Of a DNA stretch of 64,000 nucleotides, positions 7,937 through 41,276 are shown one piece after another (the stretch's first letter is position 1; each line of letters begins with the position of its first letter). The position numbers were made by a program, and so were the translations under genes. The stretch comes from Myxococcales bacterium (GTDB lineage Bacteria > Myxococcota_A > UBA9160 > UBA4427). The notes beneath the pieces were generated by a model that saw only the letters and a list, made by a program, of their open reading frames with translations, made no database searches and had not been told where the DNA came from. The stretch is from the NCBI GenBank assembly GCA_012959805.1, contig DUCN01000098.1:69646-133645 (forward strand). The letters run 5' to 3'.

Positions 7937-8211
7937 CGGCTGCCATTACGGAGATCGGTCAGGAAGCGATCACCACCGTGATTAATCGATGCGGATCACT
8001 GAATCACCAAGACTGGCACAGAATGAACATTCTTTCGCCTACTTGTTCTATTTGAGAGATTGTCCACTGGACTCCTCGAACTGGCTTCGAAACACGACAG
8101 AAAGGGAATAGCCTTGACGAGGTCCCCAATCGATAACGACCCAACGCCACCACTCAATTCGGAGTTGAACGAACGGCACGACAACCGAGTCGTTGCCTGG
8201 CAGCGATCCTG

Positions 8212-8469
8212 GTGATTATTGGCGTGGTGGTTCTAGCGGGATGTGAAGACGAAGACTCAATGCATCCGATCCAGAATCTATGCGCAGCGATTGAACGTGA
8301 GGACCCGGGACGACTAAAGACCATCATGGTGCCGCTGGGCCAGGACATGGACGAGGTCTCGCGCGGACTCTGGCTGGAAGATCTTGCCGCTCCGACCACC
8401 GCGAGGCATTACGTTAGTTTGATCGATCTTCGGTGGCTGCTCTCGATCAGCGTTTCCGCCGCCGAGTAA
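8212..8469 (+). CDS. possible small lipoprotein (start uncertain)
   Basis: Lipobox-like VVVLAGC-EDED near the N-terminus. The in-frame hydrophobic leader extends upstream of the GTG with no canonical ATG. No recognisable family. Confidence 0.3.
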   Translation: MIIGVVVLAGCEDEDSMHPIQNLCAAIEREDPGRLKTIMVPLGQDMDEVSRGLWLEDLAAPTTARHYVSLIDLRWLLSISVSAAE

Positions 8470-8475
8470 TCGAGT

Positions 8476-9527
8476 TCAACTCGGATCGGGTGCGGGCGTA
8501 TTCGGTCCGCTTTCGGAAAGCTCGGGCTCTGCGATATAGACACTGTCCCACTCGCCCGTCAGACTGCCGAGGAACGCAACGATGTCCCCGACTTGAGCCT
8601 CCTCGAGTATCACACCGATCTGATGATGCGACATGATCTTGACCGCGGCTTCAAGGGTCATGATGGAACCGTCGTGGAAATAGGGTCCCGTCTTCGTGAC
8701 ATTTCGCAGCGATGGAACCTTGAAGACATGTCGATCTCCAGCATTGCCGGTGATCTCCTCCCGACCGATGTCTTCCGTGGGAAACGGAATCACGAAACCA
8801 AGCTTGCGATAGATCTGACCGCCGACGGCGGCTCCGGTATGACAGGTATTGCATCCAACGGACAGAAAGGTCGTTAAGCCGCGCTGTTCTGCGGTATCGA
8901 GGGCATCGTAGTCGCCCCCCATGAACGCATCGAAGCGGCCCGGCGTCATCAGGTTCCGCTCGAAGGCACCGATCGCCCGCGCCATATTGTCATAAGTGAG
9001 GCTCGCGCCCGAGGCCTTCTGATCTTCAGGGAACGCATCATCGAAAGCGCTGACATAACCGCGAATTGAAGCCAAGACTACGACCGCGAACTCCTCGGAA
9101 GGAAGTGCCATCTCGATTGGATTGTTCGGCGGGCCCTTCGCCTGCGCCTCGACGTCGGCGGCACGACCATCCCAGAATTGCGCGATATGCATGACGGCGT
9201 TGTAGACGGTGGGTGAGTTTCGGCCACCGCGCTGCCCCCATGTCCCGGGGAGGTCGGCTCATTGTCGACGCCATAGGCATCGGGAAGATGGCAGGAGTTA
9301 CATGCGATGTCGTGGTTCTTCGACAGGCGCTTGTCGTAGTAGAGCATCCGGCCCAGATCGATCTTCGCCTTCGATGCGACGTTCTCCGCATTAGGCACGC
9401 TCGCCGGAAGTGGCCCAAAGATCGAGGCCGCCCGTTCCTACAGCGCGACTGATGCGGGATCGGGCATCTCGACCGACTCGGGCGTCCCGGCACAGGCAGA
9501 ATTCAAGAGAATCAAAGAGACCAACAT
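8476..9527 (-). pseudogene. dihaem cytochrome c peroxidase (CCP/MauG family), disrupted
   Basis: Lipoprotein signal MLVSLILLNSAC. In-frame TAG at 9438-9440. First haem site CNSCH. A +/-1 frameshift at the C5 run 9235-9239 (..SPGHGG / QRGGRNSPTVYNAV..). The rest is intact with FWDGRA and the second haem site CNTCH. The total span matches a ~350-aa CCP. Confidence 0.8.
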
Positions 9528-9675
9528 GCTTGGGTTAGCCGGCTTTGGATCGCTCCCGCATCGTCGTATAGTCGTTGGCGTGCGCTTCATCTTTCGGGCT
9601 CCTCTACTCATCATTCGGGATGATTTGGCATTTTGGGATCCAACCGTCAAAAGAGCATCCCCAAAGGACGATGAA

Positions 9676-9924
9676 ATGGAATCGGACTCACAGCAGCACC
9701 CAGCCACATTTCTCTCCGTCGCCCTGCGTCGAACCGTCATGCGACGGGCGGCCGGATACGCGGTCGTGGTCGGCGCGATCCTGGTCACGATCAACCACGG
9801 CGATACGCTGCTCGCAGGCGAGTTTTCGAGGACCCTGTTGATGAAGATCGTCCTGACGACGACGGTTCCCTACTGCGTGTCCACGGCCTCCTCGGTCGGC
9901 GCGATTCGCAGCGCCGACCGATAA
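9676..9924 (+). CDS. NrtS-family small membrane protein (putative nitrate/nitrite transporter)
   Basis: 82 aa starting at MESDS. ALRRTVMRRAAGYAVVVGAILVTINHGD...TTTVPYCVST resembles NrtS-family proteins as I recall them. The upstream part of the 9526 ORF is antisense to the peroxidase start. Confidence 0.55.
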   Translation: MESDSQQHPATFLSVALRRTVMRRAAGYAVVVGAILVTINHGDTLLAGEFSRTLLMKIVLTTTVPYCVSTASSVGAIRSADR

Positions 9925-10008
9925 ACCAAACCCGACCCCACGCCGGGTCTCCGCTCCGCGGGCTCTTCGCATGGCGGGAGATTAGGGCGTGTGCAACCCT
10001 CAGCGATC

Positions 10009-11289
10009 ATGTTAGATCCTCGTAGTCTGAAAGACCGACGTTCTGAAATCGTCGAGAGCTGTCGCGCGCGTCACATCGATGCGGATGTCGATGCTGCAAT
10101 CGCGCTCCATCAGCGTGCGAGTGAGGCACGGACCGAACTCAATGAGGCGAATCGCCAGCGAAACGACCATCAGAAGTCCGGCAAGAAGAAGCTCGAGAGC
10201 GACGAAAGAGACGCGCACACCGCTCTCGGCCGCCAGCTCAAACAAGAAGTCACCACCCTCGAAGTCAGGCTTCGGGACATCGAGACCGAGTTCGAGACCG
10301 AACTCCGGCGCCTTCCCAACTACCTGCATCCAGAAACCCCGATCGGAAACGAAGAGGACTGGAAGCTGGTCTCGACCTCGGGTGAGCCCCGCAAATTCGA
10401 CTTCGCGCCCAAGGATCATCTCGTTCTCGCAAACGACCTCGATCTCGTCGACTTCGAAAACGCATCCCGCGTCGCGGGCCAGAAATTCTACTATTTGAAA
10501 CGCGAAGCCGCGCTCCTCGAACTCGCTCTCCAGCGTTTTGCTCTCGACCATGTCATGCCGAATGGTTTCATTCCGATCGTGACACCGGATCTCGCGCGTC
10601 CCGACATCATCGAAGGCCTTGGGTACAGCCCCCGTGGAAAAGAGACACAGATCTACTCGATCGAAAACCATGACCTCTGTTTGATCGGAACTTCCGAAAT
10701 CACGTTAGGCGGAATGTACGCGGATTCGATTTTCTCCGAGGAGGAACTTCCGCTTCGACTGGCCGGTATTTCTCATTGCTTCCGAACCGAGGCCGGCGCT
10801 CATGGTCGCGAGAGCAAGGGTCTCTATCGCGTCCACCAATTTACGAAGATCGAGATGTTTGTCTTTTGTCGCCCCGAGAATTCCGAAGAACATCACGCAG
10901 AGCTGCTGCGGCTCGAACAGGAAATTTTCGACGACCTCGAAATTCCGTACCGCGTCATCGATATCGCCAGTGCCGATCTTGGCGCGCCCGCCTATCGAAA
11001 ATTCGATCTCGAAGCCTGGATGCCCGGGCGGGGGGAAGCCGGCGACTGGGGTGAGATCACGAGCACATCGAATTGCACGGATTTTCAATCGCGCCGGCTG
11101 AAGATTCGTTATCGCCGGACCGGAGAAAAGAAGAAGAACGAGTTCGTCCATATGTTGAACGGCACAGCGATCAGTAATGCCCGAGCGATCGTCGCCTTTC
11201 TCGAAAATCATCAGCAGAGCGATGGCAGTATCACGATCCCCAAGGCGCTGGTTCCTTATATGGGATGCGATCACATCGGGCCGCGCTGA
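10009..11289 (+). CDS. serS: seryl-tRNA synthetase
   Basis: MLDPRSLKDRR start, N-terminal coiled-coil arm, class II motifs (FRTEAG, GTSEITL, NGTAIS..RAIVAFLENHQ). Confidence 0.95.
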   Translation: MLDPRSLKDRRSEIVESCRARHIDADVDAAIALHQRASEARTELNEANRQRNDHQKSGKKKLESDERDAHTALGRQLKQEVTTLEVRLRDIETEFETELRRLPNYLHPETPIGNEEDWKLVSTSGEPRKFDFAPKDHLVLANDLDLVDFENASRVAGQKFYYLKREAALLELALQRFALDHVMPNGFIPIVTPDLARPDIIEGLGYSPRGKETQIYSIENHDLCLIGTSEITLGGMYADSIFSEEELPLRLAGISHCFRTEAGAHGRESKGLYRVHQFTKIEMFVFCRPENSEEHHAELLRLEQEIFDDLEIPYRVIDIASADLGAPAYRKFDLEAWMPGRGEAGDWGEITSTSNCTDFQSRRLKIRYRRTGEKKKNEFVHMLNGTAISNARAIVAFLENHQQSDGSITIPKALVPYMGCDHIGPR

Positions 11290-11307
11290 GCGCCCTGCCC
11301 TTCGCCT

Positions 11308-13251
11308 ATGGCCGCCCCGAAAAGTCTCGTCCTCGGAACCGCCGGACATATCGATCATGGAAAGACCGCACTGGTTCGAGCGCTCACTGGCCGTGATCTC
11401 GACCGACTCCCCGAAGAAAAGGCACGCGGCATCACCATCGAATTGGGATTCGCTCCGCTGGAACTCCGCGATGGGATGCGGCTGGCCGTCGTCGATGTAC
11501 CCGGCCATGAAAAATTCGTACGGACGATGGTGGCCGGCGCAAGCGGACTCGATCTACTCATGCTCGTCGTCGCCGCGGATGAAGGCGTCATGCCCCAGAC
11601 CCGCGAACATCTGGCCATCTGTGAACTCTTGGGGATCCGGCGTGGGCTCGTCGTCCTGACCAAATCTGACCTCGTGGACGATGAAGAGATGCTCGAACTC
11701 GCCGCCGAAGAAGTTCGAGACGTGCTTGCGGGCGGACCGCTCGCCGATCTCGAGATCATCCCCGCGAGCGCACAAACCCATGCCGGGATCGACACGATTC
11801 GATCGGCCCTCGAAGAGCTGATCCGCACAGCGCCGGACCGCGCTGATGATGACCGCCCCTCCCGACTCTTCGTCGATCGCAGCTTCACCAAACATGGCTT
11901 CGGAACCGTCATCACGGGAACCTGGTCCGGACGGCCACGCCGTATCGGTGACACCGTCGTCCTTGAACCAGGCGGCCGAAAAGCCAAGATCCGCGGTCTC
12001 GAGCGACATGGTGAGTCGATCGAGCAAGCTGTTTCCGGAGCCCGGATTGCGGTCAATCTTCAAGGCGAGGCCCGAGACGAGATTCACCGCGGAGATTTGT
12101 TGACGGAGCAGGGCGCTCTTCTCGAAACCGAAACCTTCGATGCCAGCGTGCGCTGGATGGCGAACAATAACAGCCTCAGCGACCAGATCTCAGTCGAGTT
12201 ATTATGCGGCACAGCGGAGCGCCGGGCACGCATCGCCCCGATCGGAGACAAGCCGATCGCACCTGGCGATGACGGTTACGTACGCATTCAAATCGACGGA
12301 CCTCCCCTGGCGCTGCTTCCCGGGGATCGCTTCGTGCTGCGCGGCTTCGCACGCGATGCCGGAGTCGGCTCGACACTCGGCGGCGGTATCGCCCTGGACG
12401 TCGCCCCGCCCCATCGCCGTCGGCGCGATGCCGGCCTCATCCGGGATCTCCAACGAATGGCGGAAGACACGCCAGAGGAGGCGCTTGAAGTTCGTATCGC
12501 TCGCGCGGGCCTCGAAGGCGCACGGTCTGAAAGGCTGGCCAAAGAAACCGGCATGGACCTCGAGCGGCTACATGGCGTCCTAGACCAACTCGAATCAGCG
12601 AATCTGATCGCGCGCCTCGATCCATCCACTTCCATCTCGTCACATGCAGCCGACCGACTCACCCAAGACCTCCTCACCGGTCTACGCGAATTCCACGAGC
12701 GCGAACCGCTTCAGCCCGGCATGCCACGTGCGGCACTCGCCGGACGACTGCCGAGCAATACCGCGGGCGAAGCCGGCACCTATTTACTCACTCGCCTCGC
12801 TGCGCAGGGCGAAATCCTGATTCGCGATGAAGTCGTTTGTGCCATGGATTTCAAGTCCTCCCTTAATCCCGTCCAAACAAAGCTCGCCGACCTCCTGCGC
12901 AGCCGTTATGCGGGGGCCGGCCTCGACGCGCCGACGCTTCGATCACTCGCCGATGAACTCGATGAGGAGGCAAGTCGGCTGCGGGAACTCTGTCATTTCC
13001 TCGAACGCGAGGGCAGTCTTGTCGCGGCCCCAGATGAACTCTTCTTCGACCGGGCTGCGATCCTCGCACTCATTGAACGCGTGTTGTCGCATTTTGTGTC
13101 GAATCCAGAACTCGACACGCAGACACTCAAAGCCTTTATTGGAACCAGTCGGCGCACGGCGATGCCGCTGATGGCGCTACTCGATGACCTTCAAATCACG
13201 AGAAGAGACGGCAGTATTCGCAGGCTCCTCAATAAAACGCCGCGCTGGTAA
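11308..13251 (+). CDS. selB: selenocysteine-specific translation elongation factor
   Basis: G-domain GHIDHGKT / DVPGHEKF / TKSD, EF-Tu-like domains II-III, and a long C-terminal extension of the winged-helix type. 647 aa. Sits 18 nt after serS. Confidence 0.9.
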   Translation: MAAPKSLVLGTAGHIDHGKTALVRALTGRDLDRLPEEKARGITIELGFAPLELRDGMRLAVVDVPGHEKFVRTMVAGASGLDLLMLVVAADEGVMPQTREHLAICELLGIRRGLVVLTKSDLVDDEEMLELAAEEVRDVLAGGPLADLEIIPASAQTHAGIDTIRSALEELIRTAPDRADDDRPSRLFVDRSFTKHGFGTVITGTWSGRPRRIGDTVVLEPGGRKAKIRGLERHGESIEQAVSGARIAVNLQGEARDEIHRGDLLTEQGALLETETFDASVRWMANNNSLSDQISVELLCGTAERRARIAPIGDKPIAPGDDGYVRIQIDGPPLALLPGDRFVLRGFARDAGVGSTLGGGIALDVAPPHRRRRDAGLIRDLQRMAEDTPEEALEVRIARAGLEGARSERLAKETGMDLERLHGVLDQLESANLIARLDPSTSISSHAADRLTQDLLTGLREFHEREPLQPGMPRAALAGRLPSNTAGEAGTYLLTRLAAQGEILIRDEVVCAMDFKSSLNPVQTKLADLLRSRYAGAGLDAPTLRSLADELDEEASRLRELCHFLEREGSLVAAPDELFFDRAAILALIERVLSHFVSNPELDTQTLKAFIGTSRRTAMPLMALLDDLQITRRDGSIRRLLNKTPRW

Positions 13252-13285: not shown

Positions 13286-14752
13286 TCATCGGACGACGCG
13301 AAGACTGGCCACCGCCGCCTCGATCGAATCGAATAGAACATCGGCAACGCCTTCAATGCGAAAAACCGGAGCAATTCCGAAATAGAGGATGGCCGCCGCG
13401 CACAGCGCGAGCACGAACTGTTCATTGCTCAGCGCTCGACTCTTGGCCGATTCGTCCGCGGCTGGACGCAACATCGCGAGCAGAGGGCGGCCAACCGCGG
13501 TCAGTGCGAGAACGGTCCCCGCCAATCCGGCAAAGAGTAGAACGCGATGCCCCCCATGTTCGAGAGCAGAGAGGATCTCGACGCGCGCGACGAATCCGAC
13601 TGTGCCTGGAAAGCCGCCGAGGGAAAGCAGGAAGAGTGCGAGCAGCGCCGCTCGAATCGGGCTCTCCTGCATCATGCCGGCCAGATCCCCCACGTGTTCG
13701 CATGCACGCTCGTGATGACTGAGCGAGGAAAGAATCGCCAGCACACCGACTGCTGAAATACCCGCCGCAAATAACGCCAACAACAAGGCAGGACCACCCG
13801 CGTCCGTCGCTTCGACCAGGGCCAGTGCGAAGAAACCGGCTTGACCAACGCCCAACCAACCGACCAATCGGCGCAGCCCCATCTGCACCTGCGCCATAGC
13901 ATATCCCCAGACAAGGCCAAGACATCCCAATACGGCGAGCAGGCTTGTCAGACGTGTCGCGATCTCGCCGGGAGACAGAATGAAAGATATGCGCAGCAGA
14001 ACGAAAAATGTCGTGGCCTGGAGCGCCATCACGATATGTGCGGTCACGAAACTCGGCGCGCCTTCGTGGACGTCCGGTGACCAGGGATGAAATGGTGCGA
14101 CAACGGCTCGGGCGAGGAGGCCGAGCACGATCAGGGTCACTCCGACATCAAATAACATCGGACGCGCAACCAATTCCAGACTCAGTGAAGAGAGATCGAG
14201 GCTTCCGGTCGCCGCAAACACTAAGGCAACCCCATGGGCGAAGATGATGCTTGCAAGAACATGTGCAAAGAAAGCCTTCAGACTCGACTCGCTCGAAGAC
14301 AAACGTCGTGAATCAATCGAGATCAGCGCGACCACGGGCAGCCAGGCCAGTTCGATCGCGAGCATGAGTCCGAGTAGGTGATCGGAATGAATGGCGGATG
14401 CCATTCCCGCAAGCGAAAAGAGCACAAGGGCAATCGGTTCGGCGGGCCGGGAGCGTGCCATACCGAAATGGGTGAGCGACAGACTCAGAACCAGAAACCC
14501 AGAAAGCAACACGAACGCAACCGCGAAGAATGAGAAGTCGTCGAACATCGCGTCCGTACGGCGAGCGGCCGCCAGACTCGCGGCCAGAGCGAAGACGGCG
14601 ACGGAACCCAAACGAATTCCCGATAGTGCATTGGCTCGGGCAAGATCGCCTTCGACCGGCTGGGAGGCTGGCGAAGGTTGCGACCTCGAGAAGAGATCGA
14701 AGGCCAGCACCGCAAGTGCACCCGCGGCGACGACATGAGCCGGACTCATCAT
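13286..14752 (-). CDS. complex I subunit N-like antiporter-type membrane protein (divergent)
   Basis: Contains AIELAWLP and VAPFHPWSPDVHEGAP (compare the PFH.W.PDVY.GAP of NuoN). About 14 TM helices. 4-nt overlap with the M-like gene. Confidence 0.85.
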   Translation of the reverse strand: MMSPAHVVAAGALAVLAFDLFSRSQPSPASQPVEGDLARANALSGIRLGSVAVFALAASLAAARRTDAMFDDFSFFAVAFVLLSGFLVLSLSLTHFGMARSRPAEPIALVLFSLAGMASAIHSDHLLGLMLAIELAWLPVVALISIDSRRLSSSESSLKAFFAHVLASIIFAHGVALVFAATGSLDLSSLSLELVARPMLFDVGVTLIVLGLLARAVVAPFHPWSPDVHEGAPSFVTAHIVMALQATTFFVLLRISFILSPGEIATRLTSLLAVLGCLGLVWGYAMAQVQMGLRRLVGWLGVGQAGFFALALVEATDAGGPALLLALFAAGISAVGVLAILSSLSHHERACEHVGDLAGMMQESPIRAALLALFLLSLGGFPGTVGFVARVEILSALEHGGHRVLLFAGLAGTVLALTAVGRPLLAMLRPAADESAKSRALSNEQFVLALCAAAILYFGIAPVFRIEGVADVLFDSIEAAVASLRVVR

Positions 14753-16410
14753 TGCCTTCGCCCCATGTCATCGGGTCCCAGACCGATCGTGAGATGGACG
14801 ACCTCGATCTCGATAGCACCTTCATCCCCACCTTCGCCCTCTGAGCCGGTGGGAAGTTTTGGAGTAGCTCGCTGGTCCATCTGATTCAGGATTTCGAGCA
14901 CTGCGGGTTCAACCCGGCGCAAGATCGGATTCGGGTAGACGCCAACGAACACGATGGGAATCGTCATGGCGAGCAGCAGCGTTCGCTCGATGCGATCAAG
15001 ATCGATCAATCCGCGATTACCGGGTTTGTCCACCGGCCCGAGAAAAATCCGGCGCTGAACCCAGAGCAGATAGGAGGCGGCCACCACCATTGCCATCAGC
15101 GTGACGACCGACAATTCCCGCCGCGTCTCGAGACTTCCGAGCAGGACGAAGAGATCCCCGACAAACCCACCCAAAAGCGGCAGCCCTATGAGCGAGAAGA
15201 CCATGACCGCAAAGAAAAACGCGCAGACCGGCATCGGTTTCGCGAGCCCACCGAACGCGGCCACGTCAGTCGTGCCTCGACGCAACGCAAGCGTCCCGAT
15301 CAGGATGAAGAGGCCCGCCGTCGCCACACCATGGGTCAGGAGTTGCACGACTGCACCGGTCAGTCCCTGAACGTTCAAGGTCGAAATACCAAAGACTGCA
15401 AAGCCCACATAACCGACACACGTATACGCGACCAACCTTTTCAACTCTTTCTGGACCAGCGCGATCAGCGAGGCATAAACAAAGGCAACAATCCCGACAA
15501 CAGAAAGTGCAGGGCCTGCTGCGATCGCCGCGTCGGGGAAGAGAGGCAGCGCATAACGAAGAATGCCGAGGGCTGCGGCTTGGACAAATCCCGTTGCCAG
15601 CAGAACCGATAGGCCGGTCGGCGCCGCAGCGTGGGCAGCCGGAAGCCAGAAATGCAGGGGCACCAGGGGGAGGCGTGTCCCGAGCGAAACAGCCAGAACG
15701 AAGAAGAGCCAACCCTGATCCAGTTTCGAAACGCTCACGTCCAGTAGTGAAACACCGCTTGCTCCGGGAATCGCCACCAGGTCAAAGGTCGCCACACCCA
15801 ATTGATCCAGACTCGCCTCGCGAAGAACGAAAGCGACAAAGAGCAGTCCGGCCAGACCGATCGATTCGATCGTCCACATCCGACTCGCAGCGCGCGCGCG
15901 CCCCAGCCCGCCCCATCGCCCCATCCAAAGAAGGATCGGAAGCAGACTCGTGGCCCAGAAGAAGATGAAGGACAAGAAATTCACACTGGTGAAAAGGCCG
16001 AGCAGGCTCGTCTCGAGAAATAAACAGGTCATCACCCAACTACGAACGGACCCCTTGACCTCCCGCTCTGAAGCCAGCATGGCGATTGGTACCAGTCCCG
16101 CGGTCGAGGCCATGAAACAAAGGGCGATTCCGTCGATGCCAAATCGCATTCCTGCGCCGAAGCGATCTCCGAATCCCACGACTTCGACGAATTGGAATCC
16201 GAGCATCTCGGGATCGAATCCGAAAACGAGACCCACCACGACAAGTCCAAACGTCACCAACGTGACCCCCAACCCCAGGGTCCGCCAAACGACTTCGGGC
16301 AGCGAGCGCAGTCCTATGAAATTCAGGAGCAATCCCGTTCCCAGGAGCACGAGCGCGGCGGCCGCCGGTAGCGCCACAATCAATGACAGGATGTGTTCGG
16401 CGTAGTCCAT
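14749..16410 (-). CDS. complex I subunit M-like antiporter-type membrane protein (divergent)
   Basis: PLHFWLPAAHAAAPT and FFWATSLLPILLWMGRWGG align to the NuoM PLH.WLPDAH..APT and FFWE..L.PMY...WG motifs. Confidence 0.85.
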   Translation of the reverse strand: MDYAEHILSLIVALPAAAALVLLGTGLLLNFIGLRSLPEVVWRTLGLGVTLVTFGLVVVGLVFGFDPEMLGFQFVEVVGFGDRFGAGMRFGIDGIALCFMASTAGLVPIAMLASEREVKGSVRSWVMTCLFLETSLLGLFTSVNFLSFIFFWATSLLPILLWMGRWGGLGRARAASRMWTIESIGLAGLLFVAFVLREASLDQLGVATFDLVAIPGASGVSLLDVSVSKLDQGWLFFVLAVSLGTRLPLVPLHFWLPAAHAAAPTGLSVLLATGFVQAAALGILRYALPLFPDAAIAAGPALSVVGIVAFVYASLIALVQKELKRLVAYTCVGYVGFAVFGISTLNVQGLTGAVVQLLTHGVATAGLFILIGTLALRRGTTDVAAFGGLAKPMPVCAFFFAVMVFSLIGLPLLGGFVGDLFVLLGSLETRRELSVVTLMAMVVAASYLLWVQRRIFLGPVDKPGNRGLIDLDRIERTLLLAMTIPIVFVGVYPNPILRRVEPAVLEILNQMDQRATPKLPTGSEGEGGDEGAIEIEVVHLTIGLGPDDMGRRQ

Positions 16411-16444
16411 CAGGATCTCATGGCTCTAAACGCATTCGCCGCGC

Positions 16445-18487
16445 TCATTGCAGCATCCAGCTGACGATGACCAGGACCGTGAGCAGCCCAAGCAGCGCAT
16501 AGCTCTGCAATCGGCCGTTCTGGAGTCGGCGAAGTCCGCTCCAGACGAAGCGACGAGCCAGGCCGGAACCACCGGAAACTACAATGCGATCGATCAACCG
16601 AGTCTCGATGAGGCCAACCAATGCCCAGCGCGAAAGCGCCTTAAGCGGACGGACCAGGACCAGGTCGTAGAATTGTTCGACGAAAAACATTTCGCGCATC
16701 ACGCCTTGCGATAAAAGAACGGCCTGCTGTTTCGATTGTCCCTGGTATCCGCGACGCGCATAACGCCATGCGGCGATGCCTCCGCCCAAAGCAATGCTCA
16801 CGAGCAGCCCGAGAATCAGACGAATCCGAGCAGCACCGAGCAGCAAGGGATCTGGATTGCCAACAAGAGAGCCTGCCATGAAATGACCGACCGAATCCAT
16901 CTGCTCCACGCCCCAGGGACTTCCCCAATATTGCGAAGGCGTGAGAACACCCGCCACGACGGCAATCACCGCAAGCACCGTCAGTCCATGCTGCGTCCAG
17001 CCAACCGGGTCTCGCAATCGTTCTTGCGAAAGACCTCCCTGGCGAACGTTGCCCCAGAAGATCAGGAAGTAGGCGCGTCCCAGCGCAAAAGCCAGAATGC
17101 CGATCGACAGCATAATGGTCATGATCAAAAACCAGCGATCCGGACGCTCGGAAATGGCGATGAATGCCAGAATTTCTTCGATCGAGAAGAAGTTCGAGAA
17201 AGGCGGACATCCGACCAACGCGAGACACCCACCCGCCGCCATCACGTTCGTCCAGCGCATCGTGAGTGCGAGCCCGCCCATCCGACGAATATCGGTTTCA
17301 CCCCGCAAGGTGATCACTACAATTCCCAGAACAAGCAGGAGCTGCGCTTTGATGAAGGCATGAGTGAGGAGCAAAAACGCACCGGCCGAATACGCGCCGA
17401 TGCCTATGCTGATGATCACAAGTCCCAGCAGACTCGATGTCGTATAGGCAATCAATTTCGGCAGAGACCACTGCGCGCTGGCCGCCAGACTGGCCATGAA
17501 CATGGTCAACACCCCGGCGATGACGAGAAACATCCGTGCAATCGGCGCGCTGTCGAGCAGAAAGGAGAAGCGCAACAAGAGATAAACACCCACCACGACG
17601 GTGGTTGCCGATTGCATCAAGGCGTTTGCCGGAATTGGCCCGGCCGACGCGTTCGGAAGCCAAAAATGAAGTGGAAACTGCGCACATTTCGTGAGCGCCG
17701 CGAGCACGAGTCCAATCCCCACGATCTCGAGTAGAAGCGGAGGTGACCCCGCACTCCATTCGAGCCACGCAAGGCCCTGTCCATCAAGCAGGCGGAATGC
17801 CGACTCGATCCCGCGAAAACTGAGCACCGGCGCATTCGCCCGAGACAACCCATCAAAGAGCAGAAGGATCGCGGCAAGAAGTCCTAGGTCGCCGACCCGC
17901 CCCACCACGAAAGTCACGGCACCAGCGCGCGAGGCTGTGCGTTCCTCGTAATCGAAGGAAGCGAAGAGCTGTGAGGCAACACCGACGATCGTCCAGCCCA
18001 GAAAAAGCAGCAGCAAATTGTCGGCCAAAATCAGGACGAGCGTGCCACCGACTAACAAGTCGAGCATGGCAAACATTCGATGCCCCGATTCGGAGGTCAG
18101 CGTCCCATCGCGAAAAAGCCCGATCGTATAGATGTAGACTGTCAATGCGATCAAAGTAATCGCGAGACAGAAAACCGCGGAGAGGGGATCGAGCTGGAAG
18201 GTCAGTTCAGCGCTGAAGCTTCGGCCACCCACACCGCCACCGATCCAGGGGCCGAGACTATCGAGTATCCGCTGACTACGACCGACACCGACAAGATCGA
18301 AGACCGTCAGTACACTGAGGCCGAAGGAGGCGGCGATGGCCGAAAGTGAAATGCCCCAGATCGACCGATCGGTGAGTCTGGCACGAACGAGTCCGATCAA
18401 GAGTCCGTGAGCGACCGCTGCAATAAAGGGCAGAATCGCAATCCAACGGACCATCGAAAACGGAACGCCAACTCCCCATTCGTTCAC
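16445..18487 (-). CDS. complex I subunit L-like antiporter-type membrane protein with C-terminal lateral-helix extension (divergent)
   Basis: ILADNLLLLFLGWTIVG, TKCAQFPLHFWLPNASAGPIP and LTHAFIKA align to NuoL motifs. 680 aa with a long C-terminal extension. Confidence 0.85.
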   Translation of the reverse strand: MNEWGVGVPFSMVRWIAILPFIAAVAHGLLIGLVRARLTDRSIWGISLSAIAASFGLSVLTVFDLVGVGRSQRILDSLGPWIGGGVGGRSFSAELTFQLDPLSAVFCLAITLIALTVYIYTIGLFRDGTLTSESGHRMFAMLDLLVGGTLVLILADNLLLLFLGWTIVGVASQLFASFDYEERTASRAGAVTFVVGRVGDLGLLAAILLLFDGLSRANAPVLSFRGIESAFRLLDGQGLAWLEWSAGSPPLLLEIVGIGLVLAALTKCAQFPLHFWLPNASAGPIPANALMQSATTVVVGVYLLLRFSFLLDSAPIARMFLVIAGVLTMFMASLAASAQWSLPKLIAYTTSSLLGLVIISIGIGAYSAGAFLLLTHAFIKAQLLLVLGIVVITLRGETDIRRMGGLALTMRWTNVMAAGGCLALVGCPPFSNFFSIEEILAFIAISERPDRWFLIMTIMLSIGILAFALGRAYFLIFWGNVRQGGLSQERLRDPVGWTQHGLTVLAVIAVVAGVLTPSQYWGSPWGVEQMDSVGHFMAGSLVGNPDPLLLGAARIRLILGLLVSIALGGGIAAWRYARRGYQGQSKQQAVLLSQGVMREMFFVEQFYDLVLVRPLKALSRWALVGLIETRLIDRIVVSGGSGLARRFVWSGLRRLQNGRLQSYALLGLLTVLVIVSWMLQ

Positions 18488-18501
18488 GAAGCCATAGCCT
18501 C

Positions 18502-18837
18502 CTAGCCTTCCAACAATCCGGCATCATCCGCATCGAGCGTGCCGCGACGCCGGATGCGAGCCATGACGACGCCCAGCCCCACTGCGATTTGCAGACAACA
18601 GATGGTGACGACACCGAGCACCAACACGCCGCTCATCGCCGCTTCGTCAGGCGTCGCCCGACCAAGACCAAAGCCGATGACCACCATTGCCACCGAAACC
18701 CAGGCAAATAGAACACCCACCAGCATCCCGACCAGACTTCTGCGCCAGAGCAGACCCAGCATGCCGATCCAGAAGAGCGCGGCTCCACCGATCACCAACA
18801 CTGAACTCGTCGACGCGATCATTCCAGGCTCACCCAC
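18502..18837 (-). CDS. complex I subunit K-like protein (divergent)
   Basis: 111 aa, 3 TM helices. LFWIGMLGLLWRRSLVGML aligns to NuoK LF.LG..GL..RRNL..ML. C-terminal ..AVGLG..M.R. Confidence 0.75.
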   Translation of the reverse strand: MGEPGMIASTSSVLVIGGAALFWIGMLGLLWRRSLVGMLVGVLFAWVSVAMVVIGFGLGRATPDEAAMSGVLVLGVVTICCLQIAVGLGVVMARIRRRGTLDADDAGLLEG

Positions 18838-19347
18838 CTAGTTGTTCCCCTCGTCGTCCTGAAGCAGCAACATGGTCGCGAGTAGTCCCCCGGCGATCAG
18901 AAACCCCAGTAGCTGCACCAACTCCTGGAGCGGGCCAAAAAGAAGTCGGCCAATGCCCGCTGAATCGATGAGAAAACCATGCGGCGCGAAAGGCGTGAAT
19001 TCGCCGACCGCCGAAACAGAATCGATCAGCAGAGCCAGACCTCCAGCAAGAAACAGAAAGGCGATGGCTCTCGCCAGAGAGGTCGGCCGATCCGTTGCGG
19101 GCAGATGATCCCGATCCACGTCGACTAACATCCAACCAAAGAGCTGAATGATACCGAGCGACAGGGTCGCCAGGATCATGACCGCATGACCGACGAATCC
19201 GGAACCTGCGAAAAGAAGGGTGAAGGCCATCGCCGCGACGAAGACGAAGGCAGCGGCGATCTGACGAGTCAGATTTCGACCCACGACGATCGAAACGAAT
19301 GCCGCAACGAGCGCAATCACGAGGGCGCTGAGCATCGCGATGCTCAT
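18838..19347 (-). CDS. complex I subunit J-like protein (divergent)
   Basis: 169 aa, 5 TM helices. General NuoJ layout, including the C-terminal GRLLFGP...LLGFLIAGGLLA segment. Directly abuts the K-like and H-like genes. Confidence 0.65.
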   Translation of the reverse strand: MSIAMLSALVIALVAAFVSIVVGRNLTRQIAAAFVFVAAMAFTLLFAGSGFVGHAVMILATLSLGIIQLFGWMLVDVDRDHLPATDRPTSLARAIAFLFLAGGLALLIDSVSAVGEFTPFAPHGFLIDSAGIGRLLFGPLQELVQLLGFLIAGGLLATMLLLQDDEGNN

Positions 19348-20616
19348 TTAGCCGCCTCCTAACAGCATCTGCGAGAGCTGGTTAGGAGACCCTTGTACGA
19401 ATAATGAAGTCGCCGAGACCAGAAGAAGGTTCGCCCAGGCCAGCGGAAGGAGACGAAAGGCGACGAGCCGTGTTCGCTGGTCGTCGCGTAGATTCGCCAT
19501 CGATCTGCGAAACATGCCGTCCGCGATGAGAACAAACACGAGCTTTCCAAAGAAGACACCGATCCCAATCCCAACGGCCAGAAAAGCGGGGAGCGCAAAA
19601 CCAACGTGGGGCGCCAAGCGATCGACGACGTCACCGATTCGAAGAAAAGGGATGGCACCTGCGCCGAGAAAGAGTGAAACGAAAAGTGCCGCAGCGAAGA
19701 CTCGGGCGAGGCGCGCCTCCAGCCGCCCCCAATAGAGGTCGACGGGATCATGATCGAGACCAAAGCCAGCAAGGCAGACACTTCCGGTTTCCGGGTTCGC
19801 AACCCAGGACCGCCGAGTCAGCCCATAAAGGGCCAGCCAAAACAACAACGCGGTCAACGGCTGAACGAAAATATTCCATCGCGGCCAGCGGAGATCGCGG
19901 ATCCAATCGAAGACTTGGCCCGACAAGACTTTGGGAAGCCAGAAGAGTGGCGAAAATGTTGAGTTTTGTGCGGCCACAATATTCTGGAGCCGGGCCTCGG
20001 GCTGTGAGGAGGCCGTCATCGCAACGATCTCCGACGCAATCGCTCGATCCGTCAGCCCCGACATGTCCGAAATGGAAGTCACTGCGAGCGGGGCAGTCAC
20101 GAGGATGAGGAGCCCCAGACCGGCCAGGGTTTGGCTCGCAATCCCGACGCTTCCGAGCCGGGACCACGGACTTCGATCCGCCAGTCCGATGCCCACCTGC
20201 GCGAATCCCATCAAGAGGAGCAAGAAGACAATCGCAATCAAACCATGATCGAGATCGGCAACGATCAAAGGACGCCCCGCCGCGCGACCACCCCAGGTTC
20301 CCGCAAAGGGAATCAGAGCAAGTCCACTCGCGAACGCGACGCATGAAATCAATCGGCCGATCCGTCGCAGCCAGGCGGACTGATCAAGCACCCGGGTTCT
20401 CGACCGCACCATCCGAGCGACACCGGCCAGGCCGCGCGCAACCAGGGAAACGACTGGCGGGCGATCCGCATCAAAACCCCAGGCCGCGCGGGGCGCCGAC
20501 CAGCGACCTCGCCTAGTCGAATGGGCGAGTCGACCCCGCCGTTCCAACACAGCGCAGGCGACTAACGCGAGCAACACGATGCCCACCCAGAGGATCGCCA
20601 TCCCCACGCCGATCAT
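19348..20616 (-). CDS. complex I subunit H-like protein (highly divergent, ~100 aa longer than NuoH)
   Basis: Blocks LERR, IVADLDHG, ..WSRLGSVGIASQTL.., FRRSMANLRDDQ...RLLPLAWANLL align to NuoH (GERR, VADLN.G, KYSLLGA.RA.AQTLSYE, R...PR.RYDQ...K..LPL.L.NL). Confidence 0.7.
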   Translation of the reverse strand: MIGVGMAILWVGIVLLALVACAVLERRGRLAHSTRRGRWSAPRAAWGFDADRPPVVSLVARGLAGVARMVRSRTRVLDQSAWLRRIGRLISCVAFASGLALIPFAGTWGGRAAGRPLIVADLDHGLIAIVFLLLLMGFAQVGIGLADRSPWSRLGSVGIASQTLAGLGLLILVTAPLAVTSISDMSGLTDRAIASEIVAMTASSQPEARLQNIVAAQNSTFSPLFWLPKVLSGQVFDWIRDLRWPRWNIFVQPLTALLFWLALYGLTRRSWVANPETGSVCLAGFGLDHDPVDLYWGRLEARLARVFAAALFVSLFLGAGAIPFLRIGDVVDRLAPHVGFALPAFLAVGIGIGVFFGKLVFVLIADGMFRRSMANLRDDQRTRLVAFRLLPLAWANLLLVSATSLFVQGSPNQLSQMLLGGG

Positions 20617-21083
20617 CGCGACGACTCCCGCTGACGTGCGTGCAGCGCAACGACGAAGGTCGGCAAGACGAGCCCGATCGAAACCTGTAGAGCAGACAGT
20701 CCCAGCATTCGAATCGCACTGACACCTGGCAGGACCAGGATCGCGAGAACGCAGACCAGCGCGGTCGTGATCAGGGTTCGATGCTGCAAGACCGCTTGCC
20801 GGGGCGAGCGCAGGGATTTCAGTGAGGAACCAAAGGCGACCGGCTCAAGATCGATCGGATGCCGTGCAGAAGCCGGCAGCTGCCGCCGAATCACCCAGAC
20901 CAGCGCGGGCGTGGTCATCGCACAGACAAGGATCAAGACCAAAAGAGTCAGCCAGCCCAGCGGCGCAAACGAAGCCGTCGCCGGGTCTACATTTTCGATC
21001 ATCGAAGGAAAGGACTCGGCGAGCATCCGTGCCATCCGCGTGCCGTCCGCCAAATCGACGGCGGGGTCATCCTTTGAGGCCAC
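20613..21083 (-). CDS. first gene of the operon: 3-TM membrane protein, tentatively NuoA-like
   Basis: 156 aa with three hydrophobic helices, in the operon position of nuoA. The similarity is weak and the FDVE-type motif is absent. 4-nt overlap with the H-like gene. Confidence 0.45.
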   Translation of the reverse strand: MASKDDPAVDLADGTRMARMLAESFPSMIENVDPATASFAPLGWLTLLVLILVCAMTTPALVWVIRRQLPASARHPIDLEPVAFGSSLKSLRSPRQAVLQHRTLITTALVCVLAILVLPGVSAIRMLGLSALQVSIGLVLPTFVVALHARQRESSR

Positions 21084-21166
21084 TCTGGGGCCCCGAAGGG
21101 AGTCGCAAGAGTAGCCGTAGCCCCCCAGAACGTCAACGAAATTCGGATTCGCGAGTGTGTTCGCAA

Positions 21167-22255
21167 ATGTTTTCGGAAGGCGGTGTCACTGGGGTCGGCG
21201 GTGTTAGAGTCCCCGCCGTGAGTACACCGACCGCAGTTCTCGGCGCCGGCAGCTTCGGCACGTGTCTGGCCATGCTCTGTGCCCGCGCCCACGACGTCAA
21301 ACTCTGGAGCCGGCGTCCCGATGTGGCCGAGGCCATCAATCGAGATCGCCGAAATCCCCGCTATCTCTCCGAATTCGCTTTGCCCGATCGCGTCGAGGCC
21401 ACCGCCGACCTGCGCGACGCACTCGCCGGCCGCGAACTCGTCATCATCGCGGTGCCCAGCCATTCTTTGCGCGAAGTCATGACCGAGGCCGCACCCTTCA
21501 TCGAAGAAGGCGCGATCATCGTCTCGGCGGTCAAGGGCGTCGAGTTTGAAACGGGACTCACCATGAACGGAGTCTTTCGAGAAGTTCTCGACGTTGCACA
21601 CCATCCCCGCCTCGTCGCACTCTCGGGCCCGTCCTTCGCAGCGGAAATTGCCCAACGCCTACCCACCGTAGTGACCGTGGCCTGCCGTGAAGAGGCCTAT
21701 GCCATCTCGGTTCAGGCGACGCTGTCTTGTCCATGGTTTCGCTGTTACACGCATACGGATGTGATCGGGGTGGAGACGGCGGGCGCGCTCAAGAATGTCA
21801 TCGCCATCGCCGTCGGCATGTCCGATGGAACGGACAGCGGACTCAATGCACGGGCCGCCTTGATGACACGCGGACTCGCGGAGATCACGCGAATCGGAGT
21901 GGCCCAGGGTGCGGAAGCGGAAACCTTTCTCGGGCTCTCGGGAATGGGTGATCTCTTGTTGACGTGCACCGGGGACCTCTCCCGAAATCGGCGCGTGGGG
22001 CTCGGCCTTGGACGCGGCCGGAAGCTGGCGGAAATCCAGGCGGAGCTCGGCGAGGTGGCCGAGGGCATTGCAACAACCCGAGCGGCGGTTCGTCTGGCCG
22101 AGCGGCTCCGAGTCGAGGCTCCCATCTGCCAGCTGGTGCGGGCGGTCATCGACGGGGAACGCACGCCCCGCGAAGCGGGGCTATCACTCATGACTCGGCA
22201 GCTGCGAAGTGAGCGGGATCGCGGACCCCGAGTCAGAAAATCCGGTGGCCCATGA
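21167..22255 (+). CDS. gpsA: NAD(P)H-dependent glycerol-3-phosphate dehydrogenase
   Basis: AVLGAGSFGTCLA Rossmann start, RNPRYL, GALKNVIAIA, GDLLLTCTG..SRNRRVG. The ORF-track start at 20822 is an Arg/Pro-rich artefact; a GTG at 21218 is an alternative start. Confidence 0.9.
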   Translation: MFSEGGVTGVGGVRVPAVSTPTAVLGAGSFGTCLAMLCARAHDVKLWSRRPDVAEAINRDRRNPRYLSEFALPDRVEATADLRDALAGRELVIIAVPSHSLREVMTEAAPFIEEGAIIVSAVKGVEFETGLTMNGVFREVLDVAHHPRLVALSGPSFAAEIAQRLPTVVTVACREEAYAISVQATLSCPWFRCYTHTDVIGVETAGALKNVIAIAVGMSDGTDSGLNARAALMTRGLAEITRIGVAQGAEAETFLGLSGMGDLLLTCTGDLSRNRRVGLGLGRGRKLAEIQAELGEVAEGIATTRAAVRLAERLRVEAPICQLVRAVIDGERTPREAGLSLMTRQLRSERDRGPRVRKSGGP

Positions 22256-24778: not shown

Positions 24779-26434
24779 TCATGTGTTCTCCGTCGGCGAA
24801 GAGGCCAGGCGAACTTCCTCGCCCTGCGCGGCCGCCACGATCGCATCCTCCGCACGCGCGAAGATGTGGTCTTCATCCACCGCTCCGGGAGCCACGCCGA
24901 GGCGCGTGAGAAGATCCCTCGGCTCTTCATGCAGCTCGGCGATGTAGATCTCCGTGCCTGCTTCAGTCATTTCTGTGATCAAGTCGGCCAGCGTATAGAC
25001 ACCTGATTGATCGAGATAGCGCACGTCCCCCATGTGCAACACGACGACCCGCGCATCCTTCATCCCACCGAGCTTGCGCTGGAGGGGACCCGCGTTGCCG
25101 AAGAAGAGAGAGCCATGGATTTCCACGACGTAGATCCCCGAGAGCACCTCTTCCGGCGTCTCCAGATCCGGGATCCATGGCCGGTGCGCCGCAATGTCAA
25201 GCAGAGGAGAATGGGTCGCAGGATCAATGTCGCTCAGTCGCTTGAGCAGAATCATACTCGCCATGACCATGCCGACGGCGACCGCCCACATCAAGTCGAC
25301 AAAGACAGTCAGACCGAAAACCGTGAGCATGACCGCCGCGTCGCCACGTGGAGCACGACTAACATGGCCCAGGCCTTTGGTGTCGACAATACCGATGCCG
25401 ACTGTAATCAAGATGCCTGCCAGGACGGCCATTGGGATCTCGGACGCGAGCGGTCCGAGCGCCAACAGGATGGCCAGAAGCAGAACTGAATGAATGATTC
25501 CAGAAAGATGGGTCTCGCCACCGGAACGGACATTGACGACGGTGCGCATCGTGGCGCCGGCGCCGGGCAGACCACCAATCAATCCGGCCACGATATTCCC
25601 GATGCCCTGCCCCATCAGCTCACGTTCGCTGTCGTGACGTGTCTTGGTGACGGCGTCTGCGACGAGTGACGTCAAGAGCGAGTCGATGGCCCCGACAATG
25701 GCCAACATCAGCGCCGGGACCAGGATGATCTGGAACATCTCGAAGTCCCAACCCGGAATGCGCGGGACGGGGAGTCCGCGGGGAATCTCTCCAATGCGCG
25801 GAACTTCGATGCCCAGAAGGACCGAGCCCGCAGTCATGACGATGAGGGCAACCAGCGTACTGGGGACGACTCGAATGAGTCGCGGCGCGGTGTAAATGAT
25901 GCCGATCGTGCATAGGCCGAGGATCAGGGCTGAAGGATTGATATTCTGAAAGGCCTCGGGAATGTGTCGGAGCGCGGCCACCGTACCGCTGGCGGGTTTA
26001 TGCCCGAATAACTGCGCCAGTTGGAGGATGATGACGATCGCCCCGATTCCGCTCATGAAGCCAGAAACCACGGGATAGGGAACGTAATGGATATAGCGGC
26101 CGAGCCTCAGCAGTCCCATCAACACCTGAAGGACTCCAGAGAGCGCAACCATCGCGAAAACCCACGCGATGTCTCCGGTTAGAGCCCCGACGATGCCTGC
26201 GACCACGACGGTCATCGGGCCGGTGGGACCTGAAATCTGGGAAGGCGTTCCACCGAAGAGTGCGGCGAAGAATCCAACCGCAATCGCGCCATAGAGTCCC
26301 GCGGCGGCGCCGTTCTCGACACCCGAAGCAACACCGAAACCCAATGCAAGGGGCAATGCAACGACGCCGGCGGTCACACCACCGAAGATGTCTCCACGCA
26401 AGTTTCCGCAAAACCGCTGGGTGAACGAACTCAT
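24779..26434 (-). CDS. SulP-family inorganic anion transporter with C-terminal STAS domain
   Basis: Typical SulP N-terminus (DIFGGVTAGVVALPLALGFG.ASG), about 12 TM helices, and a STAS tail (VVLHMGDVRYLDQSG). Confidence 0.9.
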   Translation of the reverse strand: MSSFTQRFCGNLRGDIFGGVTAGVVALPLALGFGVASGVENGAAAGLYGAIAVGFFAALFGGTPSQISGPTGPMTVVVAGIVGALTGDIAWVFAMVALSGVLQVLMGLLRLGRYIHYVPYPVVSGFMSGIGAIVIILQLAQLFGHKPASGTVAALRHIPEAFQNINPSALILGLCTIGIIYTAPRLIRVVPSTLVALIVMTAGSVLLGIEVPRIGEIPRGLPVPRIPGWDFEMFQIILVPALMLAIVGAIDSLLTSLVADAVTKTRHDSERELMGQGIGNIVAGLIGGLPGAGATMRTVVNVRSGGETHLSGIIHSVLLLAILLALGPLASEIPMAVLAGILITVGIGIVDTKGLGHVSRAPRGDAAVMLTVFGLTVFVDLMWAVAVGMVMASMILLKRLSDIDPATHSPLLDIAAHRPWIPDLETPEEVLSGIYVVEIHGSLFFGNAGPLQRKLGGMKDARVVVLHMGDVRYLDQSGVYTLADLITEMTEAGTEIYIAELHEEPRDLLTRLGVAPGAVDEDHIFARAEDAIVAAAQGEEVRLASSPTENT

Positions 26435-26502
26435 AGTTTCCTGACTTTAGTACGGCTCTCCGAAAATTCTTTTCCGCCGTCCACTATTTTGACATCAGTC
26501 AC

Positions 26503-27183: not shown

Positions 27184-27230
27184 GATGGTACTGGGTTCAT
27201 TCTCGATCGGCGTATTCTAGGATCGACTGT

Positions 27231-27280: not shown

Positions 27281-27332
27281 GACATCTTGTCCCGCAATTG
27301 TCTATTCAACGATCGAATCAGGAGTGCTTGGC

Positions 27333-41261: not shown

Positions 41262-41276
41262 CGTCACCCGCTCGAT

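Follow-up and report, generated by a model that had tools for sequence, protein, structure and literature searches.

A complex I membrane-arm operon of Myxococcota_A with a replaced proton relay, probably a relic kept by selection

Introduction

Operons that hold only genes for the membrane arm of complex I, in the arrangement nuoAHJKLMN, have been reported as partial nuo operons in Salinispora (PMC3314556) and in sponge and deep-sea Streptomyces and Kocuria (PMC6676996). The same arrangement is found at one conserved site in all Bdellovibrionota, where it coexists with a complete nuo cluster in predatory members and is reported to be 37.5-41.5% identical to that cluster (PMC13147790). The 'partial nuo' clusters of Degli Esposti (2015) are Mbx-like. 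In the literature the nuoAHJKLMN clusters are read as extra pumps, and none is characterised biochemically. Here we describe a seven-gene, nuo-like operon at 13286-21083 of a 64,000-nucleotide stretch (contig DUCN01000098.1, positions 69,646 to 133,645; assembly GCA_012959805.1, Myxococcales bacterium), which as a whole is called the window below. The lineage belongs to the UBA4427-type group of GTDB Myxococcota_A (bioRxiv 10.64898/2026.07.10.737566).

The operon probably encodes the relic of a complex I membrane arm that has ceased to pump protons and that selection retains for another role. While its gene arrangement is known, its origin in situ and the selected neutralisation of its proton path are not described in the literature searched, in which no description of a degenerate complex I membrane arm was found.

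Results

Identity of the seven subunits

The operon holds A-, H-, J-, K-, L-, M- and N-like genes and no further open reading frame (ORF) (Table 1). The ORF list matched the first-pass annotation of seven packed minus-strand genes: 4-nt overlaps join N to M and H to A, K/J and J/H are directly adjacent, and gaps of 34 nt and 14 nt separate M from L and L from K. The proposed content and order A-H-J-K-L-M-N were confirmed by Pfam, hhalign, the NuoH fold and syntenic orthology, and Pfam analysis of the called flanking genes agreed with a convergent selB and a divergent gpsA as the bounds of the operon. Among the single assignments, those of H and K were backed by Pfam; for J the window copy gave no Pfam match, but hhalign supported it.

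PF00361 matched the N-, M- and L-like proteins (E 2e-39 to 2e-50), and PF00662 the L-like protein. The K-like protein matched PF00420 (E 2.9e-11) and the H-like protein PF00146 (E 2e-18, 67 bits). Against NCBIfam the M-like protein reached 343 bits with TIGR01972, exceeding the cut-off of 264 for the NuoM subfamily. The L-like protein (354 bits with NF005141, cut-off 556) and the N-like protein (216 bits with TIGR01770, cut-off 333) stayed under theirs, and the H-like protein scored about 30 bits with NuoH equivalogs whose cut-offs are 300-540. The best NCBIfam matches of the L-like protein were NuoL, not MrpA. It aligns to the final residues of NdhF (652/656) and Nqo12 (602/606), so that the lateral helix and the terminal transmembrane (TM) helix are present.

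The H-like protein keeps ERRxRL in TM1 and RDDQ..RR.LPLAWANLLL in TM8, and its TM1-2 loop is Arg-rich and conserved across the window family. Its AlphaFold (AF2) model, based on a 36-sequence alignment, had a predicted local distance difference test value (pLDDT) of 82 and a predicted template modelling score (pTM) of 0.85. The top 50 Foldseek matches of this model were all NuoH, ND1 or NdhA chains, with target-normalised template modelling scores of 0.63-0.81. Confidence was low only in residues 42-52 and 272-287, which correspond to the TM1-2 and TM5-6 loops lining the quinone cavity of complex I. In NuoH these loops are normally ordered by the quinone (Q-) module. According to the model, the H-like protein retains the NuoH fold.

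By themselves, the window copies of the J-like and A-like proteins matched no Pfam or NCBIfam model; NuoJ of the Salinispora operon is likewise annotated as hypothetical (PMC3314556). The family profile of the J-like protein matched Paracoccus NuoJ in the PDB (E 0.002, colinear over 4-164), hhalign aligned it with a NuoJ alignment (96.6%, E 5.9e-10), and its orthologues gave weak matches to PF00499. In its TM3 a family-invariant QLFGWMLVDVDRDHLP takes the place of the canonical QIMVYAGAIVVLFLFVVMLLN. The A-like family was aligned by hhalign with NuoA (93.9%, E 1.6e-7, 97 colinear columns), and its gene holds the position of a PF00507 nuoA in the syntenic loci L034, L035 and L037. A search of the PDB with the A-like family profile was not significant (NdhC, E 0.87), and its matches to FliQ and PotC were spurious. 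The conserved core of the protein spans about 115 aa. Three TM helices are present, together with a TM1-2 loop (LEPvAFG) that resembles the canonical EPFECG and a new, family-conserved motif, FG.S..RSPRH..HR. Because the core begins at about residue 41 of 156, translation probably starts downstream of the GTG at 21083, for example at the ATG at 21026.

Replacement of the proton-path residues

Key positions of the proton path were fixed by alignment to solved complex I chains and then read in 14-22 orthologues. In complex I and in Mrp antiporters these Lys, Glu, His and Asp positions carry protons. In the window 19/24 are changed: the canonical read-out is A DE, H EEDEEEE, K EE, L EKHKK, M EKKE and N EKKK, and the window reads A CL, H ELAEGVD, K LQ, L TKQKI, M ARQD and N ERQR. 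By this read-out the operon lacks the conserved titratable relay of proton-pumping complex I.

The changes extend through all subunits. In the L-like protein the TM5 Glu is replaced by Thr or Ala, the TM8 His is Gln (13 orthologues) or His (5), and the TM12 Lys is Ile or Leu; the TM7 Lys (K267), K380, H376, D200 and E437 are invariant. The M-like protein has Ala at the TM5 Glu (A153) and keeps H360; R246 for the TM7 Lys, Q277 for the TM8 Lys and D419 for the TM12 Glu are invariant in 17 orthologues. The N-like protein keeps the TM5 Glu (E134) and has R215, Q245 and R390 for the Lys residues of TM7, TM8 and TM12, all four being invariant in 14 orthologues. Both membrane Glu of the K-like protein are gone, E36 being replaced by Leu (Leu or Gly across the family) and E72 by Gln (20/22 orthologues). 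The canonical Asp and Glu of NuoA TM2 (FDVE) are swapped for non-acidic residues, and the H-like protein has lost the acidic TM5-6 loop PFDxPExESE and the Glu of SYE.

In E. coli NuoL, NuoM, NuoN and NuoK, replacing the relay Lys or Glu largely or wholly abolishes activity, and the PFDxPExE loop of NuoH couples quinone chemistry to the membrane arm. As read from the aligned residues, the canonical proton relay and the coupling elements of this operon have been replaced. Since the proton-carrying residues are mostly replaced, conventional pump or antiporter activity is unlikely, and the working Mrp- or complex-I-like ion machine implied by the first-pass annotation is not supported.

Descent from a split nuo operon at the same site

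Relatives carry operons of the type A-E-F-G-H-J-K-L-M-N (L034, L035, L046, L061, L066, L069, L071, L073, L075, L080). In L034 and L035 feoAB lies upstream of nuoA-E-F-G-H-J-K-L-M-N, and L034 additionally has gpsA upstream and selB-serS downstream; wherever the flanks of such A-EFG-H loci are present, the feoB-gpsA and selB-serS neighbours are those of the window. Loci L037, L038, L076 and L078 have A-H-J-K-L-M-N at this site, without EFG and at intermediate divergence. The window family thus shares its synteny anchors with the A-EFG-H loci and with the EFG-less intermediates.

When 1.84 billion representatives were searched in full by HMMER with the H-like profile, the matches formed a graded series from the core family through intermediates to canonical NuoH. 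Many members of the intermediate group (E 1e-41 to 1e-20) are without canonical motifs, and its named members are Myxococcota. A metagenome scan with a subset of the intermediate alignment added 80 loci, mostly canonical operons, which served as control set and in which gene order and the 24 key positions were read automatically. The 54 loci with nuoG adjoining nuoH, which span the A-EFG-H type, the Binatia A-CDEFG-H type and the standard A-B-C-D-E-F-G-H-I type, had canonical residues at 703/706 key positions. Every locus read in which nuoA adjoins nuoH was degenerate; L076 and L078 were non-canonical at 22/32 positions. Counted from the read-outs, the non-canonical fraction was about 11/24 in L037, 18/22 in L038 and 19/24 in the window. 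The changes in L037 include isosteric neutralisations (NuoA FDVE to VNAQ, NuoK E36Q and E72Q, NuoL TM5 Glu to Gln). Judged by synteny and these read-outs, deletion of nuoEFG from a split nuoA-EFG-H-JKLMN operon left the present operon as its orthologous remnant, and the change peculiar to this lineage is the loss of nuoEFG, not the absence of the Q-module from the operon.

Additional observations were made on nuoH and on split operons elsewhere. In the global representative library about 50 clusters at 50% identity (P0127-P0223) hold NuoH-like proteins that are, to varying degrees, without PFDxPExE and/or SYE, and degenerate NuoH therefore appears to be a broad phenomenon beyond the window family. 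Locus L036 (JGI 3300035099, 7509-11092) has nuoA-nuoC-nuoG-nuoH with canonical H motifs; in place of J-N come an acyl-CoA synthetase-like gene and then a pair of Rieske and cytochrome b genes. Loci L100, L101, L115, L116 and L118 have nuoA-C-D-E-F-G-H-J-K-L-M-N, a cluster with neither nuoB nor nuoI. The matches listed for NuoD of L115, at 84-90% identity, include several annotated as Candidatus Binatia; this is a further split-operon lineage.

Divergence and selection

The canonical locus L034 was used as rate reference. The flanking genes gpsA (62-71% identical to L034) and serS (62-73%) are about equally similar in all lineages. NuoH is 73-74% identical in canonical relatives, where it is the best conserved subunit, 55% in L037, 26% in L038 and 23% in the window (23-27% across L038 and the window family). 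In the window family NuoA and NuoJ fall below detection against L034, and the identity of L, M and N drops to 30-39%. Compared with canonical homologues, the window nuo proteins are 23-39% identical and the flanking genes 47-66%. Because the flanks are about equally similar everywhere, the acceleration is confined to the nuo genes, and H, A, J and K, the heel and E-channel subunits whose normal contact is with the Q-module, show it most strongly. This pattern speaks, short of proof, against a functional contact to a Q-module.

The ratio of nonsynonymous to synonymous substitution rates (dN/dS) was 0.09-0.33 for all seven genes in comparison with L009 and L010. Values up to 0.56 (core of A) were obtained with the more distant L017; dS is saturated. 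Most of about 21 species-level genomes have all seven ORFs intact. The view of the first-pass annotation that the operon is maintained by selection is borne out by these data, and judged from the sequences the seven genes are under purifying selection.

In a neighbour-joining tree of NuoL the EFG-less loci all fall into a single long-branched clade (deep node 25/100 bootstrap) nested among the A-EFG-H operons; the node of the window family reached 100/100. NuoL of an Arthrobacter plasmid branches outside the Myxococcota group.

Distribution and integrity of the locus

The exact H-like protein was found on contigs of up to about 500 kb in two NCBI 'Myxococcales bacterium' metagenome-assembled genomes (MAGs), in Joint Genome Institute (JGI) data and in Logan. 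The locus is identical in four independent assemblies, namely the two NCBI MAGs, a 321 kb JGI contig from the Guaymas plume and a Logan assembly. A word-indexed search gave 116 clusters of H-like relatives, and in a scan of one genome per GTDB species about 21 species-level MAGs, from marine, lake, activated sludge and soil habitats, carry the locus. H of these family members is 37-85% identical to the window copy, and the order is A-H-J-K-L-M-N in every locus long enough to judge. Since four independent assemblies and about 21 species share this order, the locus is a product of neither chance nor misassembly; the clipped nuo operon that the first-pass annotation had named as a possible error is excluded.

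The MAGs of L010, L012, L026 and L027 are labelled Spirochaetaceae or Enterobacteriaceae and have the Myxococcota-type locus with the same flanks; one isolate name among them contains 'MYXO'. These taxonomic labels are probably wrong.

Electron-input and quinone modules

No Pfam match for NuoB, C, D, E, F, G or I was obtained among all other window ORFs of at least 100 aa, and Pfam-verified NuoB, NuoD and NuoF baits gave no tblastn match within the window. Genes for NuoB- and NuoD-like proteins of the group-4 hydrogenase type (PF01058, PF00346) are absent from the window, MrpB, E, F, G and the MrpA C-terminal domain are absent from the operon, and the 10 kb beyond the window start also hold no nuo genes, those of the Q-module included. 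The first-pass annotation was therefore right that the 64 kb encode no Q-module or NADH (N-) module. Its further step, to call the system stand-alone since B, C, D and I are missing, does not follow: canonical relatives are also without B/C/D/I at this site, and the absence thus represents the ancestral split-operon state. NuoEFG, in contrast, is absent from the operon and the 64 kb, yet present at the same locus in relatives.

With regard to respiration, a di-haem cytochrome c gene lies at the window start (337-1008, minus strand). Just past it, at 11146-17718 of L120, a DUF420 gene and an aa3-type oxidase operon (COX2, COX1, COX3, COX4, COX3) are located at a distance of about 12-20 kb from the nuo-like genes, so that the organism possesses an aerobic respiratory chain.

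Comparison with described systems

By gene content the operon belongs to the literature class 'partial nuo operon nuoAHJKLMN', so that the claim of an arrangement outside any described system was not borne out (PMC3314556, PMC6676996, PMC13147790). The Myxococcota split operon A-E-F-G-H-J-K-L-M-N has the same site, the same order of membrane subunits and likewise no B/C/D/I. It differs in having nuoEFG and canonical key residues, in contrast to the window with no EFG and 19/24 positions changed.

The actinomycete nuoAHJKLMN clusters (Salinispora, Streptomyces, Kocuria; Penn & Jensen 2012) also consist of seven membrane-arm genes without Q- or N-module. They are plasmid-borne or horizontally acquired, whereas the window operon is derived in situ from A-EFG-H-JKLMN. 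The cluster on plasmid 1 of Arthrobacter sp. FB24 (L119, NC_008537.1 114037-122066) has nuoA, a 335-aa gene and then nuoH-J-K-L-M-N. Its read-out is fully canonical for A (DE), K (EE) and L (EKHKK); M reads DKKE and N LKKK, and H is partly degenerate. It thus differs from the window operon by the extra His/Asp/Met-rich gene between A and H and by keeping most canonical residues, and it has a separate origin because its NuoL falls outside the Myxococcota clade. The 335-aa protein carries a DMDHGSMDHGGMDMPMP-type, metal-binding-like motif, the plasmid is conjugative and the cluster lies directly downstream of a multicopper oxidase gene; judged from this context, the cluster may be a copper-related use of membrane-arm-only genes.

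The Bdellovibrionota cluster has the same gene content as the window operon and a conserved chromosomal site across a formerly 'deltaproteobacterial' lineage, and is less diverged as judged from the reported identities. Mrp antiporters also work without a redox module, with NuoL/M/N-like (MrpA/D) and NuoK-like (MrpC) subunits. They have MrpB/E/F/G, a retained relay and no NuoH or NuoA, whereas the window has H and A, no Mrp-specific subunits and a replaced relay. Cyanobacterial NDH-1, Fpo and Campylobacter Nuo are without NuoEFG, as is the window operon, but keep NuoB/C/D/I, beside or together with their membrane genes, and the proton-path residues; the window shows neither. Mbh/Mbx/Mbs, Hyf/Hyc, Ech and Fpo carry NuoB-/NuoD-like genes with their membrane genes; the window has none.

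Feature coordinates and neighbouring genes

Table 1 Genes of the nuo-like operon and its flanking anchors (positions in the window)
Gene	Position	Strand	Length	Basis and remarks
N-like (NuoN)	13286-14752	-	488 aa	ORF list
M-like (NuoM)	14749-16410	-	553 aa	ORF list
L-like (NuoL)	16445-18487	-	680 aa	ORF list
K-like (NuoK)	18502-18837	-	111 aa	ORF list
J-like (diverged NuoJ)	18838-19347	-	169 aa	ORF list
H-like (highly diverged NuoH)	19348-20616	-	422 aa	ORF list
A-like (diverged NuoA)	20613-21083	-	156 aa	ORF list
gpsA	21167-22255	+		Divergent from operon; Pfam; syntenic anchor outside the system
selB	11308-13251	+		Convergent with N-like gene, 34-nt gap; Pfam; syntenic anchor outside the system
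serS	9991-11289	+		Adjoins selB; syntenic anchor; kept in relatives

The longest gpsA ORF (20822-22255, plus strand, 477 aa, GTG) starts 345 nt upstream of the called start and crosses the A-like gene; this is a GC-rich over-extension of the gpsA ORF and no genuine overlap. The promoter of the operon must sit in the 83-140 bp that separate gpsA from the A-like gene. A sigma-70 scan detected no promoter-like site, and terminator-like sites were no commoner than expected by chance.

Beyond gpsA, Pfam identified feoAB, SulP/STAS, beta-carbonic anhydrase, LysR and an MprF-like/sulfatase fusion. The SulP/STAS transporter, beta-carbonic anhydrase and LysR genes (24779-28286), between feoB and the MprF-like gene, are not at this position in L005 and L007 and are therefore a lineage-specific insertion, possibly a bicarbonate-handling module. 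For the same reason a link of the operon to CO2 or bicarbonate via beta-carbonic anhydrase and SulP/STAS (24779-27183) was ruled out. Since relatives have the same neighbours around their canonical operon, functional links of gpsA, feoAB or the MprF-like gene to the window operon were rejected as well.

At 54458-59953 a LysR gene is divergent from genes for a GlpD-like glycerol-3-phosphate dehydrogenase, an FAD-linked oxidase and glycerol kinase, which by sequence form a glycerol catabolism cluster predicted to feed the quinone pool. Three long overlapping ORFs at 55433-59953, considered as a second L/M/N-like trio, are these three genes. The adjoining serS and selB (9991-13251) and a SelR (MsrB) gene at 32355-32762 were also noted, and the organism appears to have a selenocysteine-decoding system.

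The statement of the first-pass annotation that the region accumulates pseudogenes found weak confirmation in two possible gene fragments. A 238-aa ORF at 8476-9192 (minus strand) matches only positions 64-148 of the 149 of a di-haem cytochrome c peroxidase profile, and a 163-aa ORF at 40792-41283 (plus strand) matches a short piece of a 2-hydroxyacid dehydrogenase NAD-binding domain.

Discussion

We propose that the operon arose as follows. The ancestor, of the UBA4427 type within GTDB Myxococcota_A, would have carried nuoA-nuoEFG-nuoH-nuoJKLMN between gpsA and selB, with nuoB, nuoC, nuoD and nuoI presumably encoded elsewhere in its genome. As synteny shows, nuoEFG were deleted in situ, and the seven remaining genes then diverged very fast, H, A, J and K fastest. 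According to the residue read-outs, the titratable Lys/Glu/His/Asp relay was swapped for residues that do not titrate at physiological pH, Lys becoming Arg or Gln and Glu becoming Gln, Ala, Thr or Leu. Subunit set, gene order, folds and the lateral helix of NuoL have been kept, and the new residues and motifs are invariant in the family. The seven proteins would still assemble as a complex-I-type membrane arm, one that is not driven by NADH/quinone chemistry and is incapable of the canonical proton relay. Arg and Gln may preserve the buried polar axis needed by the fold while making this axis proton-tight, so that the arm could persist in the membrane and cause no leak of proton-motive force. 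Its role would be one other than pumping, perhaps that of a scaffold or docking platform whose cytoplasmic heel, rich in Arg and His, lies open at the former Q-module site, or alternatively that of a re-purposed transporter. A tentative proposal is that of a selected 'pseudo-pump', which lost EFG and probably the Q-module too, and whose seven subunits were charge-remodelled and exapted to a new function; it might dock a new partner on the Arg/His-rich heel of H, A and J or conduct non-protons along the Arg/Gln-lined axis.

Several observations weigh against a relic arm that no longer pumps. A Q-module encoded elsewhere might bind the arm and so keep it in redox chemistry. Canonical features persist: K267, K380, H376 and D200 of the L-like protein, the E134-R215 pair of the N-like protein, the ERR and RDDQ motifs of the H-like protein and the EPxxFG loop of the A-like protein. 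These could support a partial ion path or residual contacts. With dS saturated, the dN/dS values are rough, and for the deep NuoL node that unites the EFG-less loci, with its support of 25/100, long-branch attraction is possible. Finally, M-like and/or N-like ORFs are broken in three MAGs (L006 14255-17636, L016 14189-17083, L022 15717-17262), which could be due to assembly errors or to real decay.

The operon could alternatively encode the membrane arm of a working split complex I of the 11-subunit type, with B/C/D/I elsewhere, another input module and non-canonical ion chemistry. B/C/D/I are off this locus even where the enzyme is canonical, so that nothing follows from their absence here; functional complex I-like enzymes that lack NuoEFG are common (PMC4453560), and the EPxxFG loop and the ERR and RDDQ motifs are kept. 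Nevertheless, among the 19/24 changed positions are the two Glu of NuoK, the Asp/Glu of NuoA and the PFDxPExE loop of NuoH, divergence is greatest in the subunits in contact with the Q-module, and the equivalents of the Q-cavity loops have low confidence in the H-like model. A split enzyme is further disfavoured by the Lys/Glu relay that is retained in those EFG-less relatives which have been characterised (NDH-1, Fpo, Campylobacter Nuo), and we consider this explanation unlikely. To a similar degree it seems improbable that the genes encode a stand-alone ion transporter, that is, an Mrp-like cation/proton antiporter or a pump driven by the membrane potential. The architecture does equal that of partial operons proposed as proton or sodium pumps (PMC3314556, PMC6676996). 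The L-like protein keeps the TM7 Lys, K380, H376 and D200, the N-like protein has a TM5 Glu-TM7 Arg pair, and the genes are under purifying selection. However, every relay Lys of the M- and N-like proteins is replaced by Arg or Gln, the carboxylates of the K-, A- and H-like proteins are lost, and replacements of this kind in E. coli NuoL/M/N/K are known from established mutagenesis to be largely or wholly inactivating. MrpB/E/F/G and the MrpA C-terminal domain are missing, and the sole actinobacterial AHJKLMN example examined keeps most canonical residues and is a different case.

A functionless relic that decays towards pseudogenes would account for the extreme, nuo-specific divergence, for the lost catalytic residues and for the broken M-like or N-like genes of some MAGs. 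We regard it as highly improbable: the ORFs are intact in most of the genomes from diverse habitats, dN/dS is 0.09-0.33, replacement residues and new motifs such as QLFGWMLVDVDRDHLP in J and FG.S..RSPRH..HR in A are invariant, and translational coupling via start/stop overlaps is retained. That an assembly or binning artefact clipped B-G and I from a normal nuo operon, for which no evidence was found, can practically be dismissed, given the identical locus in four independent assemblies and the same order in about 21 species; because of the 4-nt overlap at A/H and the abutment at H/J there is also no room for the missing genes.

Research on complex I leans on point mutants of the Lys/Glu relay. 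In the operon described here, nature has replaced almost the whole relay across seven membrane subunits, with the proteins under selection in many species. The graded series at one locus, from canonical operons over L037 and L038/L078 to the window family, separates the needs of fold and assembly from those of proton transfer, and it raises the question of what use a redox-less, proton-tight arm may have, be it as respiratory scaffold, docking site or new transport system. For lineages with split nuo genes, the lack of B/C/D/I at the operon level is no evidence for a stand-alone system. The nuoAHJKLMN clusters, and MAG annotations of their products as 'NADH-quinone oxidoreductase subunit', are usually taken for extra proton pumps or for evidence of complex I; in this lineage such a reading, and any metabolic reconstruction built on it, would be wrong. 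If the pseudo-pump proposal is true, it would represent a new functional class of complex-I-derived complexes across Myxococcota_A and related lineages.

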